32,000 nt of DNA from Candidatus Electrothrix yaqonensis (GTDB lineage Bacteria > Desulfobacterota > Desulfobulbia > Desulfobulbales > Desulfobulbaceae): the NCBI GenBank assembly GCA_047651235.1, contig CP178758.1:510001-542000 (forward strand), given 5' to 3'. The notes below the pieces were generated by a model. That model worked only from the letters and a program-made list of their open reading frames with translations. It was not told the DNA's origin and did no database searches. This document shows, piece after piece, positions 2 through 31,416 of this stretch. Position 1 is the first letter of the stretch. Every line of letters starts with the position of its first letter. Position numbers and translations under genes: made by a program.

Positions 2-3000
2 GCAGAGACCTCCATCACTGTGCCGGGCATAGAATGCGTGGTGGATACCGGCCTCGCCCGCATTGCCCATTATAATGTACGGGCCGGGACTACCCATCTG
101 CCGGTGGCCCGCGTTTCCCAGGCAAGTTGCGATCAACGGGCAGGCCGTTGCGGTCGGATCGGGCCGGGGCGTTGCATCCGCTTGTACAGCGAGGAGGATT
201 ACCTTGCCCGTGATGAGTTCACCTTACCCGATATCCAGCGTTCCAATCTGGCCGAGGTTATCTTGCAGATGCTCAGTCTTCGCCTGCCTGAGCCGCGCAA
301 TTTCCCCTTTATCGATCCACCTGCCCCCAGGGCGGTCAATGACGGCTTCCGTATTCTCCGGGAACTGGGCGCCCTTGATGGCGAGCACCGGCTCACCCGG
401 CAAGGCCGGATCATGGCTCGCCTGCCTCTGGACCCGCGTATTTCCCGGATGATCATCGAGGGTGCGGAGCTGGGTGTGCTCCGGGAAACCGCGATCATTG
501 CTGCGGCCCTGGCCATTCAGGATCCCCGTGTTCAACCGCCGGACAAGCTGGAAAAAGCCCGGCAGGCCCATCGGGCCTTTAACTATCCCGGCTCGGATGT
601 CATGACCCTGGTGAATATCTGGGATGCCTGTAGGGGCGAATCCCTGTGTTCGCCCGGATCATCTGATAAAAGGCAGACATGGGGATCTGCCCCTACACCG
701 TCCGCAGGGCAGCTCCGCCGCTTTTGCGAGGCCAATTTTTGCTCTTGGCAACGGATGCGGGAATGGTTTGATATCTACGAGCAGATTCTCCGTATCCTCA
801 GGCAGCATAAGGAGTTTGCCTCGGCCTTGGATTGTATGGATGAATCGGGTGAGGGGCCGGGAGATGCCACATCGGACCGTAGGGGCAGACCTATGTGTCT
901 GCCCAATATGTATAGGGCGAACACGCAGATTCGCCCCTACAGTCAATCGGATGATTCCACAGGGGCAAAGCAGGGTACAACGCAGGCACCCCCTACCGCC
1001 CCAGCTCTGGTCCATCAGGCCCTGACCGCAGGTTTCCTCCGCAACATCGCCCTGCGCAAGGAAAAGAATACCTACCAGATCAGCGGCAACCGGGAGGCCA
1101 TGCTCTTTCCCGGTTCCGGCCTCTATAACAAGGGCGGACAGTGGATCGTGGCAGCGGATTTTGTCCACACCTCGCAGCTCTTTGCCCGCATGGCCGCCAC
1201 GATAGAGGTAGACTGGCTGGAACGTCTGGGTGGCGACCTGTGCAAGCGTTCGTATTCCGATCCACATTGGCAGAAAAAGTCCGGCCAGGTCACGGCCCTG
1301 GAAAAGGTGACCCTGTTCGGCCTGGTCATTGCCGCAGACCGGCGGGTGAACTACGGTCTTCTTAGCAAGAAGACAGCGGAGGAGGCCAAGGATATCTTTA
1401 TTCGGGAGGCCTTAATCCCTGGCGAACTCAGGGGGAAATATCCCTTTCTCGAACATAACCTGGCCCTGGTCCGGCAGCAGGAAGAGCTGGAGGAACGTCT
1501 GCGCAGGCGCGGTATCATGACTGATGAGCAGGTGCTGCACGACTTCTACGATCAGCGTCTGGGGCTGGTGTACGATCGTTTTACCCTCAATCGCTTTCTC
1601 AGCAAGAAGCGGAAACAGGTGAAGTCTGGTGAAAAGGCGGACGGCTTTCTTTGGATGACAGAAAAGGATCTCCGGCAAAGCCAACCGGAAAGTGATGAGC
1701 TGTATCGCTTTCCGAAAACCCTGACCAGTCCCCAGGGCGAGCTGCGCCTCCATTATGTCTTTCGCCCCGGCAAAGAGGAGGACGGTGTGACCGTGGATAT
1801 CCCGGCTTCCTGCTGCCCGCCCCTGTCACCGAACCTGTTTGAGTGGCTGGTGCCCGGTCTGCTGGAAGAAAAGGTGGTGGCCCTGCTCAAGGGCTTGCCC
1901 AAACGTCTGCGCAGGCTCTTTGTTCCCCTGCCGGAAACAGCGGCCCAGCTCATGGACGGCCTGGATCTCTATCAGGGCTCTTTGTACCCGGCCTTGGAGC
2001 GTCTTCTCCTCCGTCGCTTCCAGGTCACCATAACACGGGCGGATTGGCAGTTGGACAATCTCCCGCTCCATCTTCGCATGCGTTTTCGTCTCTGCGATGA
2101 GCAGGGAAAGGCCCTGCATTATACGCGTGATTTCCAAGAACTTGCCCGGCATTGCAACCCGGTTCAGCAGGCAATCCAGGGAGGGCAGGGGAGCAAGGCC
2201 GAAGACCTGCCTATCAGAAAGGATATCCAGTCCTGGGATTTTGCCGAGGCTCCGCAGCCCCTGCCGGTACGGGATCAACAGAACCGGGTGACGGGTCTCT
2301 ACTATCCGGCCTTGCTTCTGGAACAGGGCAAGGGGCCGGAGCAGCAGCTCTGCCTGAAGTACATCGCTGATGCCGCGCAAGCCCAAGCGCAGAATAAGGA
2401 AGGACTTCGTTTTTTGTATAGCAAGGTCTTTAATAAGGAACTCAAAATTATAACCAAGGAGTGTAAGGCTGCGGTATCCGGCCATACTGCCTCCTGGCTG
2501 GCCCTGGGCCTCAAGGCCGGGGCCGGAGAGACCAAGACCCTGCTGCTGCACTGCATCCTGGACGATCTCTTTCAGATTGACGGGGAACTGCCGGATAAGA
2601 CCAGTTTTGAGCAGGTTATGCAGGAGCTCCGCAGCCAGGGGATAACCCGGCTGGCACGGGAGCAGCTTCATCAGGTATTGGAACTGCTGGCGGAACGCCG
2701 CAAGACCCAGGTTGCCCTCACCCAGAGCAGACAGCGGGCTGGCAAGAGCCGGAGTGCAGATCAGGCCCGGTTTGTCGAGTATCAGGAGCTCCTTGAGCGA
2801 TTGGTTCCTGCGGGTTTTCTTGCTCACTTTGCGCCTTCAGAGGCGGGTAACAGGAAACGTTGGTTGCAGGCTCTGGCAAAACGAATAGAACGGGCAGAGC
2901 ATAGTCCGCATAAGGATGCGGACAAGGCGAAACGGGTTCAGCCCTTTGCCGAACATCTGCGTCAGCTGGAAAGAAAAGAGGCGGAGCAGAAGGCCGGTGG

Positions 3001-3169
3001 AAGCATTGCCCTCCCGTGCCGGGAGGCCGTGGCACTGTATCGCCGGATGGTGGAGGAATTTCGTGTCTCGGTCTTTGCCCCGGAGATCGGTACGGCCATG
3101 CCGGTCTCAGAGAAACGCTTGAAGCAGCAGTGGCAGCTTGTGGAGGAGAGCTGCAGGAGGGTGGAGTGA
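2..3169 (+). CDS. hrpA: ATP-dependent RNA helicase HrpA, C-terminal ~1055 aa (5' end lies off-window)
   Basis: The ORF is open to the window edge (codons AETSIT precede the listed start). The translation follows E. coli HrpA by eye, from AETS(I/L)TVPGI through the HA2/OB region (LFPGSGL, SDPHWQKKSGQV, DGVTVDIP, LPKRLRRLFVP) to the C-terminal EEFRVSVFAPEIGT. It carries two REP-derived in-frame insertions, listed separately. Confidence 0.9.
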   Translation, partial: AETSITVPGIECVVDTGLARIAHYNVRAGTTHLPVARVSQASCDQRAGRCGRIGPGRCIRLYSEEDYLARDEFTLPDIQRSNLAEVILQMLSLRLPEPRNFPFIDPPAPRAVNDGFRILRELGALDGEHRLTRQGRIMARLPLDPRISRMIIEGAELGVLRETAIIAAALAIQDPRVQPPDKLEKARQAHRAFNYPGSDVMTLVNIWDACRGESLCSPGSSDKRQTWGSAPTPSAGQLRRFCEANFCSWQRMREWFDIYEQILRILRQHKEFASALDCMDESGEGPGDATSDRRGRPMCLPNMYRANTQIRPYSQSDDSTGAKQGTTQAPPTAPALVHQALTAGFLRNIALRKEKNTYQISGNREAMLFPGSGLYNKGGQWIVAADFVHTSQLFARMAATIEVDWLERLGGDLCKRSYSDPHWQKKSGQVTALEKVTLFGLVIAADRRVNYGLLSKKTAEEAKDIFIREALIPGELRGKYPFLEHNLALVRQQEELEERLRRRGIMTDEQVLHDFYDQRLGLVYDRFTLNRFLSKKRKQVKSGEKADGFLWMTEKDLRQSQPESDELYRFPKTLTSPQGELRLHYVFRPGKEEDGVTVDIPASCCPPLSPNLFEWLVPGLLEEKVVALLKGLPKRLRRLFVPLPETAAQLMDGLDLYQGSLYPALERLLLRRFQVTITRADWQLDNLPLHLRMRFRLCDEQGKALHYTRDFQELARHCNPVQQAIQGGQGSKAEDLPIRKDIQSWDFAEAPQPLPVRDQQNRVTGLYYPALLLEQGKGPEQQLCLKYIADAAQAQAQNKEGLRFLYSKVFNKELKIITKECKAAVSGHTASWLALGLKAGAGETKTLLLHCILDDLFQIDGELPDKTSFEQVMQELRSQGITRLAREQLHQVLELLAERRKTQVALTQSRQRAGKSRSADQARFVEYQELLERLVPAGFLAHFAPSEAGNRKRWLQALAKRIERAEHSPHKDADKAKRVQPFAEHLRQLERKEAEQKAGGSIALPCREAVALYRRMVEEFRVSVFAPEIGTAMPVSEKRLKQQWQLVEESCRRVE
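630..696. repeat. REP inverted doublet (REPIN-like) inside hrpA coding sequence
   Basis: gtaggggcgaatccctgtgttcgccc (630-655) and ggcagacatggggatctgcccctac (672-696) are two hairpin units in inverted orientation. Each has a GTAGGGGC head and a self-complementary stem (gggcgaa/ttcgccc and ggcaga/tctgcc). Translated in frame as ...CRGESLCSPGSSDKRQTWGSAPTPS... Confidence 0.8.
879..940. repeat. REP inverted doublet (REPIN-like) inside hrpA coding sequence
   Basis: gtaggggcagacctatgtgtctgccc (879-904) is identical to the 26-mer at 30806-30831. It is paired with gggcgaacacgcagattcgcccctac (915-940) in inverted orientation. Translated in frame as ...RRGRPMCLPNMYRANTQIRPYS... Confidence 0.85.
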
Positions 3170-29696: not shown

Positions 29697-29772
29697 TACA
29701 TATCGTGACAAAATAGGCCCCGGCCTGTGTGTAATCATAATTGCGCAGCCGGCTGGAGCGGCAGTGATGCTG
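29697..29772 (-). pseudogene. 5' fragment of a second RAYT gene
   Basis: The minus-strand translation ...HHCRSSRLRNYDYTQAGAYFVTICIS* parallels HHRRSIRLRNYDYTRAGAYFVTICV of the intact RAYT. The nucleotide strings are alignable by eye (ccccggcctgtgtgtaatcataattgcgcag versus ccccggcccgtgtgtaatcataattacgcag). Confidence 0.6.
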
Positions 29773-29825
29773 CTCGTTACATTCCCCTCTTGACACGTTG
29801 ATACCATATTCGGTATTATTTAAAC

Positions 29826-30239
29826 ATGGATACAATCATTATGGACACCAATATACTTTTTTCAGGGCTTTATTCCTCATCAGGGGCATCGTATCAAATA
29901 TTAAGATGCATTGATACCGGCAGAATAATACCTGTTATATCAACTACGCTCCTTTTTGAATACGAAGATGTTCTAAAACGGAAACAAAAGGAATTATGGT
30001 TATCTGACAACGAGATTGAGGTAGTTCTTGACAATATCTGCGCCCTCAGCAAATTTCAAAAAATATATTTTTTGTGGCGACCGTACCTGAAAGACCCGAA
30101 AGATGATCATGTCCTTGAGGTGGCTGTGGCATCAAAAACAAGAATAATCGTCACCCATAATATGAAAGATTTTAGAGGGGTTGATAAATTCGGCGTGACT
30201 GCGTTACGCCCCGGAAAATTATTGGAGGCAATACAATGA
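29826..30239 (+). CDS. PIN-domain toxin (PIN_3 / TIGR00305-like)
   Basis: MDTNILFSGL...ISTTLLFEYEDVL...KDPKDDHVLEVAVASKTRIIVTHNMKDF carries the acidic PIN residues in the expected order. AT-rich. Confidence 0.8.
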   Translation: MDTIIMDTNILFSGLYSSSGASYQILRCIDTGRIIPVISTTLLFEYEDVLKRKQKELWLSDNEIEVVLDNICALSKFQKIYFLWRPYLKDPKDDHVLEVAVASKTRIIVTHNMKDFRGVDKFGVTALRPGKLLEAIQ

Positions 30240-30487
30240 GTACACTTAGTTTACGGTTACCAAATTCTATTCATCGTCATATTAAGCAAATAGCAACGCA
30301 AGAAGGTGTATCGATCAATCAGTTTATTTCGACGGCTGTGTCTGAAAAGATTTCCGCCCTTACAACAGAAAATTATCTGGAGCAACGGGCGAAAAAGGCG
30401 GATCGGGCGGCCTTCAGGGGTATATTGGATAAGGTGCCTGATCGGACACCCTTGCCGGGAGATGAGATTATGTCGGAGAATCCATAG
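30236..30487 (+). CDS. ribbon-helix-helix / HicB-like antitoxin
   Basis: LSLRLPNSIHRHIKQIATQEGVSINQFISTAVSEKISAL is an RHH-type N-terminus. The start overlaps the PIN stop (ATGA). Confidence 0.7.
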   Translation: MSTLSLRLPNSIHRHIKQIATQEGVSINQFISTAVSEKISALTTENYLEQRAKKADRAAFRGILDKVPDRTPLPGDEIMSENP

Positions 30488-30507: not shown

Positions 30508-31182
30508 TCACACCATCCACACCTCATAACTTTCATGGCCGTATGCCGGTGAAGGTTCACGGGTTTCACCGGGGAACGGGGGCTGATCAGGATGCAATGC
30601 GTCTTCCTGCCAACGGGACGGGTTATTGCGGATGTATTGGCGGATGCGGTATAATTCTGTTTCGTTGCGGATGACGTGGTCCCAATAATTGCGTTGCCAT
30701 AATTTGCCGGGAAACGGTTGCCAACCGTTTTGTTTGACACCCCGGATATATTCGTTGGTGGTCATTGTTTTGAACCATTGCACGACATCCGACAACGATG
30801 TCCCCGTAGGGGCAGACCTATGTGTCTGCCCTGGTTGAACCTGCCGGGATGGTTGCATATTCGGCGGGCGGACACGGACACGCGGAATATCCGGGCGGAC
30901 ACGCAGGTCCGCCCCTACATTGACCACGATGAAATGAACGTGATTGGGCATACAGACAAATTCATCGCATTCGATCTCGTGGAATTTGTTTTCCAATTCG
31001 GCAAACCATTTTTCCGTCATCCGGCCCGCATCATTCAACCGCATGACCCCGTTGGTGATTCCCCCGAACAGACATTCCCGATGTTGCACACAGATGGTCA
31101 CGAAATAAGCCCCGGCCCGTGTGTAATCATAATTACGCAGGCGGATGGACCGGCGGTGGTGGATGTCAGGGTTGTATGACAT
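30508..31182 (-). CDS. REP-associated tyrosine transposase (RAYT, IS200/IS605-like HUH enzyme) carrying an in-frame REPIN insertion
   Basis: N-terminus RRSIRLRNYDYTRAGAYFVTICV, HUH motif MPNHVHFIV, and C-terminal LWQRNYWDHVIRNETELYRIRQYIRNNP. It is flanked by REP units, and the central 38 aa or so are REP-encoded. Confidence 0.85.
   Translation of the reverse strand: MSYNPDIHHRRSIRLRNYDYTRAGAYFVTICVQHRECLFGGITNGVMRLNDAGRMTEKWFAELENKFHEIECDEFVCMPNHVHFIVVNVGADLRVRPDIPRVRVRPPNMQPSRQVQPGQTHRSAPTGTSLSDVVQWFKTMTTNEYIRGVKQNGWQPFPGKLWQRNYWDHVIRNETELYRIRQYIRNNPSRWQEDALHPDQPPFPGETREPSPAYGHESYEVWMV
30806..30918. repeat. REP inverted doublet (REPIN) inside the RAYT coding sequence
   Basis: gtaggggcagacctatgtgtctgccc (30806-30831) and gggcggacacgcaggtccgcccctac (30893-30918), plus a partial half-unit gggcggacacggacacgcgg (30866-30885). 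The spacer core ggttgaacctgccgggatggt matches that of the REPIN at 31211-31293. Confidence 0.85.
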
Positions 31183-31210: not shown

Positions 31211-31293
31211 GTAGGGGCAGACCTGCGTGTCTGCCCGGTTGGAACGTGCCGGGATGGTGGACAAACCGGGCGGACACAGAGGTCCGCCCCTAC
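31211..31293. repeat. REP inverted doublet (REPIN) ~30 bp upstream of the RAYT start
   Basis: gtaggggcagacctgcgtgtctgccc (31211-31236) and gggcggacacagaggtccgcccctac (31268-31293). The spacer is ggttggaacgtgccgggatggtggacaaacc. Confidence 0.85.
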
Positions 31294-31391
31294 AGGATCG
31301 GCCATGCCCTGATTGATTATCCGGGCAGGGTGCGAACCGGGCATAATCGTTATGGTGCAGGGGGATGGAACGGGTGGTGGGTAATCCCGTT

Positions 31392-31416
31392 GGGGCACGG
31401 CGGGCCGTGCCCTTAC
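31392..31416. repeat. variant single REP unit
   Basis: ggggcacggcgggccgtgcccttac is the reverse complement of gtaagggcacggcccgccgtgcccc. The head is GTAAGGGC and the stem pairs gggcacgg with ccgtgccc. Confidence 0.55.

Follow-up and report, generated by a model that had tools for sequence, protein, structure and literature searches.

What does a repetitive extragenic palindromic (REP) sequence do inside the gene of a REP-associated tyrosine transposase (RAYT)? The question is raised by a 32,000-nt stretch of the Candidatus Electrothrix yaqonensis genome (contig CP178758.1, positions 510,001 to 542,000), hereafter the window, in which a RAYT gene carries an inverted REP doublet (REPIN) within its own reading frame. 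A first interpretation, made from the letters of the window without database searches and here called the sequence-only reading, had proposed that a REPIN of the RAYT's own family interrupts the gene in frame after the HUH strand, and this was borne out: the element is free of stops and shares 86–88% identity with the REPIN upstream of the gene. It had also treated the interruption as private to this gene and the arrangement as undescribed, and on both counts the wider evidence speaks differently. A palindrome stands at the same position in nearly all relatives, in many phyla, and the arrangement was published by Quentin et al. (2018, BMC Genomics 19:475, PMC6006769) as the hallmark of TnpA_REP subclass 2.4, in which in-frame REP insertions in the gene are called a "remarkable and unique feature." The window gene is a new example of a known arrangement, not a new phenomenon.

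Read on the gene strand, the intragenic REPIN gives VGADLRVRP...GQTHRSAPT (codons 89–126) without a stop, and it is bounded by GTAGGGGC at 30806 and GCCCCTAC at 30918 (Table 1). The stem of the gene-proximal arm is self-complementary (GGGCGGAC/GTCCGCCC), the inverted repeat pairs I2 and I3 were found, and the minimum-free-energy structures pair both arms, as in the REPIN definition of Bertels and Rainey (2011). Folded as single-stranded DNA (ssDNA), the element forms a long hairpin of -32.5 kcal/mol (z = -3.6); the upstream REPIN also forms a long hairpin (-29.1 kcal/mol, z = -5.7, as DNA). Identity between the two is 88% in the left 48 nt and 86% in the right 36 nt, and their spacer cores (30827–30853 and 31232–31258) are 85% identical. 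The intragenic copy is 30 nt longer than the upstream one because of additional sequence in its centre, part of which is a partial repeat of the arm; the copies of this repeat (30865–30878 and 30892–30905) lie 27 nt apart. This resemblance is not a matter of chance. For the 8-mer GTAGGGGC, 9 occurrences were counted in the window where 0.84 would be expected, a number reached in 0 of 100 shuffles, and the 13-mer with at most 2 mismatches occurs 8 times against 1.19 expected. The upstream REPIN has GTAG+GGGC... and ...GCCC+CTAC, that is, a double foot with a G-C stem base as in the REPs that flank subclass 2.4 genes; on the other side of the gene, past its stop codon, no REP was seen.

The same REP family is also found in an unrelated gene of the window. 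Two doublets lie in frame in an hrpA-like helicase open reading frame (ORF; 20..3169, plus strand, 1049 codons), which stays open despite them. Both doublets are extra when the ORF is aligned to E. coli HrpA, with gaps at query 205–230 and no alignment for query 263–324. The gene-distal arm of the intragenic REPIN is identical at 26 of 26 positions to one of these hrpA copies. Together, the hrpA doublets and the arm identity therefore indicate that the family has entered coding regions in frame more than once in this genome, and the RAYT-internal copy is, by the same identity, a current member of the genome's REP population. The window holds four doublets of the family, of which three are intragenic (one in the RAYT gene, two in hrpA); the REPIN definition is that of an element that is extragenic and over-represented genome-wide.

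The host gene is an intact subclass 2.4 gene with an intact catalytic core. H81 and H83 of the HUH motif are in place, as are WQ (162–163) and YIRNNP (183–188), and the product is 100% identical to a protein annotated "transposase" at NCBI (P0001) of Candidatus Electrothrix sp. YB6, a cable bacterium of the Desulfobulbaceae. A Y1 HUH (IS200/IS605-like) fold is recovered by Pfam (Y1_Tnp), AlphaFold2 and Foldseek. The AlphaFold2 model, built with the family alignment, has a core with a predicted local distance difference test (pLDDT) score above 90 (residues ~30–90 and 130–200) and a predicted template modelling score (pTM) of 0.72. Foldseek matched it with probability 1.00 to the TnpA proteins of ISDra2, IS608 and IS200 and to the E. 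coli RAYT-REP complex 4ER8, which is also the sole sequence match in PDB (E = 1.1e-4). Between the HUH strand (81–90) and the helix 130–152, residues 91–128 are modelled as coil with pLDDT ~50. The low-confidence coil between a confident strand and a confident helix, together with an HUH-to-WQ distance of 79 residues compared with ~28 in 4ER8 (chain 64 to 92), points to an insert that is predicted to form a disordered surface loop between β3 and αC.

The profile scores could be taken to suggest an inactivated or decaying RAYT, either a pseudogene or a domestication intermediate with a non-functional product. The protein reaches 56.9 bits, in two stretches, with the NCBIfam equivalog NF047646 (REP-associated tyrosine transposase, REP_Tyr_transpos), below its curated cut-off of 80, the Pfam Y1_Tnp match (E = 1.7e-7) is confined to residues 124–187 in the C-terminal half, and decayed RAYT fragments lie nearby. 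However, the scores are low because the insert splits the match; NF047646, which is split in this way, was probably trained on other subclasses. Furthermore, the ORF is intact with all catalytic motifs and a confidently modelled core, and the same architecture occurs as an intact ORF in thousands of proteins. Decay is thus very improbable as an explanation of this gene, and the enzyme most likely stays active. The gene does not qualify as an autonomous IS200/IS605 insertion sequence, for which multiple identical copies and left and right ends (LE/RE) are expected. It scores 23.1 bits with the IS200-type TnpA profile NF033573, below the cut-off of 55, and no second full RAYT copy was found in the 32-kb window, which holds only decayed N-terminal fragments.

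Table 1. Features of the RAYT locus and of its REP family, in coordinates of the window (aa, amino acids; AF2, AlphaFold2).
Feature	Coordinates	Strand	Detail	Basis
RAYT / TnpA_REP gene	30508..31182	-	224 aa, subclass 2.4 (RAYT Group 4) type	ORF, Pfam, AF2, Foldseek
HUH motif MPNHVH	30934..30951	-	residues 78-83	M78, P79, N80, H81 and H83 at least 90% conserved
WQRNYW motif	30682..30699	-	residues 162-167	W162, Q163 and N165 invariant in homologue alignment
Tyr motif YIRNNP	30619..30636	-	residues 183-188	fits subclass 2.4 YIxNNP
Intragenic REPIN (inverted REP doublet)	30806..30918	.	113 nt, encodes V89-T126 in frame	repeats, alignment, folding
Gene-proximal REP arm	30893..30918	-	GTAGGGGCGGACCTGCGTGTCCGCCC on gene strand, encodes VGADLRVRP	repeat scan
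Gene-distal REP arm	30806..30831	+	GTAGGGGCAGACCTATGTGTCTGCCC, reverse reading GQTHRSAPT	26/26 identical to REP at 879-904
Partial arm repeat	30865..30891	.	extra 27 nt, not in upstream REPIN	repeat family D5
Extragenic REPIN, same family	31211..31293	.	29 nt upstream of RAYT start codon	alignment, folding
REP doublet, same family, in hrpA-like ORF	630..696	.	in frame	extra vs E. coli HrpA
Second REP doublet, same family, in hrpA-like ORF	879..940	.	in frame	query 263-324 unaligned vs E. coli HrpA

The family to which the window protein belongs is very large, with 7970 homologue hits at E<=1e-5. A search with the C-terminal half against a representative library gave 11,236 representatives at E<=1e-3, the best matches of which were mostly fragments and were set aside. 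Protein alignment A1 joined the window protein to 37 homologues of 58–78% identity (38 sequences), drawn from Electrothrix, Gallionellaceae, Nitrosomonas, Crenothrix, Methylobacter, SAR324, Phycisphaerae and others. The segment starts at the same column in almost all of these homologues, and V89, G90, D92, V95 and P97 are at least 90% conserved; the 38-residue segment is a property of the clade and not of one lineage. For the DNA level, 80 loci fetched with the family alignment and two further loci for named homologues (L001–L082) were examined together with the window, covering more than 15 phyla. From these 82 loci and the window, 78 RAYT ORFs with HUH and WQ were recovered, and GTAGG followed by CCTAC is present between the two motifs in 60 of the 78, where the expectation for such a 5-mer is ~0.2 per gene per motif. 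The GTAG...CTAC palindrome of the relatives sits between the HUH strand and the next helix, matching the position in the window. Relatives from cyanobacteria and Bacteroidota were recovered at 40–55% identity, which is consistent with the distribution stated for subclass 2.4.

Within this fixed site the inner segment is lineage-specific, as in VGADLRVRP, VGAPLVGAQ...RVAPT and VGAGPRACP...GVAPT. Insert length and copy number vary among close relatives; one homologue in A1 (P0100) has ~5 tandem units, and the minimal inserts of some loci are 28-nt perfect palindromes, such as GTAGGGGCGGTTCGCGAACCGCCCCTAC. About 18 of the 78 genes are without one or both feet and yet have intact ORFs. Among these, L025, L059 and L031 have no segment or a remnant only and fall in the same sub-clades as carriers, and their lack of the segment looks like secondary loss.

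The distribution also bears on the picture implicit in the sequence-only reading, that of a recent and lineage-specific insertion of a REPIN into an uninterrupted Electrothrix RAYT. Such an event would fit the left arm, which is identical to another copy in the same genome, and an insert length that differs from that of the closest homologues. However, close and distant homologues alike already have REP-derived sequence at the same codon position, while genes without the segment are rare and nested among carriers, so that a recent private insertion has very little chance of being correct.

REP-coded peptides were also seen at additional RAYT sites in A1. One such site follows "CLFGEIT" in the N-terminal half, another lies beyond the Tyr motif in the C-terminal tail, and some predicted homologue N-termini read through upstream REPs. 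The homologues concerned, for extra-site peptides or N-termini, are P0006, P0011, P0023 and P0046, together with P0008, P0013, P0014, P0016, P0020, P0022 and P0027.

The conservation of the segment acts on the DNA sequence and not on the peptide. In genes chosen by the protein motif VGA after HUH, Val is encoded by GTA in 50 of 50 cases (background 18%) and Gly by GGG in 50 of 50 (background 24%); at APT, Ala is GCC in 36 of 36 and Pro is CCT in 33 of 36. Across genes, the 3' foot is read in three frames, as APT (38), SPL (21) or RPY (5), and the 5' foot in two, as VGA (60) or RRG/CRG (9); its third frame would give a TAG stop. The foot is GTAGGGGC in 52 of 59 loci and GCCCCTAC in 53 of 59. 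Genes with saturated synonymous sites still have the palindrome in common, as do L074, L076 and L080, from Nitrospirae and Chloroflexi, which share an identical 28-nt palindrome, with both 26-nt arm windows matching at 26 of 26 positions, at a core amino-acid identity of 57–66% and an identity of 0.26–0.34 at 4-fold third positions. Between gene pairs with a core identity of ~0.4 and those above 0.65, the mean identity of the variable arm increases from 0.35 to 0.82 (Spearman 0.23, p ~1e-21), while third-position identity increases only from 0.30 to 0.44.

An ancestral loop that is conserved for its peptide (VGA...APT), with the palindrome as a by-product, would account for the recurrence of VGA and APT in the proteins. 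It is hard to reconcile with the fixed codons, with a 3' motif read as APT, SPL or RPY and a 5' motif read as VGA or RRG/CRG, or with a loop that is modelled as disordered, and we give it almost no weight. Nor do the homologues have the segment without a nucleotide palindrome, as an ancestral loop of the plain kind would; they carry the palindrome. Three candidates, the private recent insertion, the pseudogene and the protein-level loop, were accordingly set aside, as each is contradicted by the homologue, codon and frame, and structure data.

As for the spacing of the feet, the number of nucleotides in the intragenic element, counted from GTAG to CTAC, leaves a remainder of 2 on division by 3 in 32 loci, 1 in 25 and 0 in 2. 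Lengths that are a multiple of three are almost never seen, which means that RPY is a strongly under-represented reading of the 3' foot.

The variable stem follows not only the RAYT protein but also the genome's own REPs. The latter was seen in a one-hot Hamming scan with the 20-nt intragenic arm over flanks of up to 10 kb per side. The arm of a locus occurs in its own flanks at 1.04 per 10 kb, compared with 0.14 for arms taken from other loci, and 36 of the 68 loci have at least one own-type copy there. In a metagenome scan, the intragenic 28-mer type GTAGGGGCGGTTCGCGAACCGCCCCTAC was found in at least 120 contig stretches (L083–L202), nearly all of them single-site, and among the matches listed (120 stretches) a RAYT context was recognisable for 2 of 128 exact 28-mer sites. 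With most of its sites elsewhere than in RAYT genes, this type owes its conservation to a large and dispersed population of REPs and not to the gene-internal copy alone. The exact cross-phylum identity of the intragenic 28-nt palindrome had been considered as proof of selection within the gene; as the same 28-mer is mostly outside RAYT, that argument is weakened. The palindrome GTAGGGGCGGTTCGCGAACCGCCCCTAC itself represents a REP type that is widespread and highly conserved across environments.

On this evidence we favor, with a probability of about 0.6, the reading that the intragenic REPIN is a tolerated loop element kept current by REP turnover, in an enzyme that is most likely active. A REP would have entered the permissive β3-αC loop in an ancestor of the subclass, and from then on the loop site would have acted like any other member of the REP population of its genome. 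RAYT-dependent turnover, in the form of replacement, expansion, contraction or duplication at an existing REP, may keep the site matched to the cognate REP, while selection on the enzyme would remove only those variants that break the frame or create a stop. Turnover is supported by the differences in length and copy number and by the tandem arrays of relatives, and in the window by a copy that is partly duplicated and has one arm identical to a REP far away in the genome. Tolerance is supported by an insert modelled as coil beside a confident core, by the in-frame copies in hrpA and by the REP-coded inserts at other sites of homologues. Among the explanations offered by the sequence-only reading, the tolerated loop insertion is the best supported, and the placement of the insert after the HUH strand agrees with the loop of the structure model; the inactivating domestication step is not supported, since this gene and hundreds of relatives that share the feature have kept the catalytic motifs and the ORF intact.

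Several observations weigh against this preferred reading. Passive tolerance alone leaves unexplained the occupancy of this one site in ~75–90% of the clade's genes, and equally the near-perfect palindrome of L074, L076 and L080, where the 4-fold sites are saturated. Within the flanks of up to 10 kb per side, 32 of the 68 loci have no own-type REP, and loci that have REP copies in their flanks equal those that have none in outer-arm complementarity (0.82 vs 0.82). The turnover mechanism is itself inferred. Moreover, in the accessible part of the literature the published assays cover Group 2 and Group 3 enzymes, and none was found for subclass 2.4.

The near-universal occupancy and the undiminished palindromes would be better explained if the intragenic REP were instead an ancestral and selected cis-acting part of the gene, where the RAYT, or the hairpin as ssDNA or mRNA, would act on the gene's own copy. 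The enzyme could bind or cleave this copy to regulate its own gene, the strong hairpin could limit expression, or the copy could be a protected "seed" that accompanies the gene on horizontal transfer. The near-universal occupancy of one site across phyla, a nucleotide conservation far above that of synonymous sites and even of the protein, and a palindrome quality undiminished where no REP copy is near all speak for such a role and count against mere tolerance. The co-diversification of the stem with the RAYT core and the stability of the DNA hairpin point in the same direction. However, the element is dispensable, given the ~18 of 78 intact genes without one or both feet; its length, copy number and inner sequence vary widely; the same REP family is in frame in the unrelated hrpA; and the exact 28-mer, among the matches listed, is overwhelmingly outside RAYT genes. 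The case for selection is moreover drawn from sequence data. We therefore regard a selected cis element as the main rival, possible but less likely, and retain tolerance with turnover as the preferred reading.

The function and mobility of REPINs are a long-standing problem, and what is still of interest in the present case is that one and the same loop is occupied throughout a RAYT subclass, with strong conservation of the nucleotides. A selected cis element would explain the fixed position, the conservation above synonymous sites and the co-diversification with the protein. If the hairpin were selected, it would offer a direct handle on the control of RAYT activity or on the establishment of a RAYT-REP pair after transfer; if it served as a seed copy, a horizontally transferred RAYT could found a new REP population.

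Around the RAYT gene, the window contains further REP types and mobile remnants. At 31389–31416, GTTGGGGCACGGCGGGCCGTGCCCTTAC is a degenerate "double-foot" REP of a second type that resembles the L008/L077 type, and directly after it on the minus strand lies a decayed RAYT N-terminal remnant, "RSIPLHHNDYARFAP"; the region 31322–31416 resembles what would be left of a second REPtron, a short way upstream of the intact one. A RAYT 5' fragment at 29689–29780 (minus strand) encodes RLRNYDYTQAGAYFVTIC, which is identical to the intact RAYT N-terminus at 17 of 18 positions. It ends after ~30 conserved codons and sits between toxin-antitoxin-like genes. A third REP type, GTAGGGGCGTTTCGCGAAACGCCCCTGA at 26007–26033, comes close to a double-foot palindrome, resembles the L074 type and lies ~40 bp downstream of an htpG-like ORF (26071..27951, minus strand). 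The intervals 29826–30487 (plus strand) and 28374–28772 (minus strand) take in a PIN_3 toxin gene and an overlapping HicB/CopG-like antitoxin gene, immediately past the RAYT stop, together with a nearby DDE transposase fragment, which places the RAYT within a patch of mobile and addiction-type genes.

In-frame REPs have been described outside RAYT genes. In the accessible part of Di Nocera et al. (2013, PMC3733652), GTAG-tagged REPs are reported in frame in many protein-coding genes (such as uvrA, recB and helicases), often as dimers that encode 20–30 aa and are presumed to be tolerated in loops, and the Rickettsia palindromic elements are cited there as similar in-frame insertions. The two hrpA insertions of the window are of this kind. 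As far as that part of the article goes, its REPs flank RAYT genes and none is described inside one, unlike in the window RAYT. Another well-known system is the E. coli TnpA_REP/RayT with its REP hairpin (PDB 4ER8; Messing et al., 2012, PMC3479197), of subclass 2.2 or Group 2. It shares with the window RAYT the Y1 HUH fold and a REP with a GTAG foot, but the E. coli enzyme has no intragenic REP. A nick site or origin inside the coding sequence of its own HUH initiator is found in phiX174 gene A and pT181 repC. These sites are the replication origins of autonomous replicons, and nicking has been demonstrated at them. They serve as an analogy for a cis-acting intragenic REP, with nothing comparable known for RAYTs.

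The closest known system is TnpA_REP subclass 2.4, known in the scheme of Bertels et al. (2017, PMC5581495) as RAYT Group 4. Its motifs are NH[IFV]H, WQ and YIxNNP (Table 1 of PMC6006769), and the window protein has NHVH (80–83), W162-Q163 and YIRNNP (183–188). Further criteria for the subclass are an extra 8 aa where αB ends, placement by the clustering or HMMs of its authors, and binding, cleavage and strand transfer on cognate REP ssDNA. The subclass 2.4 insertions keep the reading frame, fall between HuH and Y in the β3-αC region, and differ in length and sequence (PMC6006769; Fig. S6, S7B, S10). In the published model they form a peripheral extension that probably affects activity little (PMC6006769), and in the window the in-frame REP likewise falls in the predicted β3-αC loop, between strand 81–90 and helix 130–152. 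The REPs of the subclass are long or "double-foot," with a 5' GT[AG]G foot and a G-C stem base (PMC6006769), and those of the window are alike; the subclass is scattered over many phyla (PMC6006769), as are the relatives of the window gene. Fixed codon usage, three-frame reading, co-diversification with the protein and conservation above synonymous sites find no mention in the accessible part of Quentin et al. (2018). The host of the window gene, a cable bacterium of the Desulfobulbaceae, is not among the taxa named there, and here the insert comprises a complete REPIN doublet, part of which is duplicated internally, unlike the insertions of that description. The window thus adds to subclass 2.4 an example from a cable bacterium, together with the same REP family in frame in hrpA.

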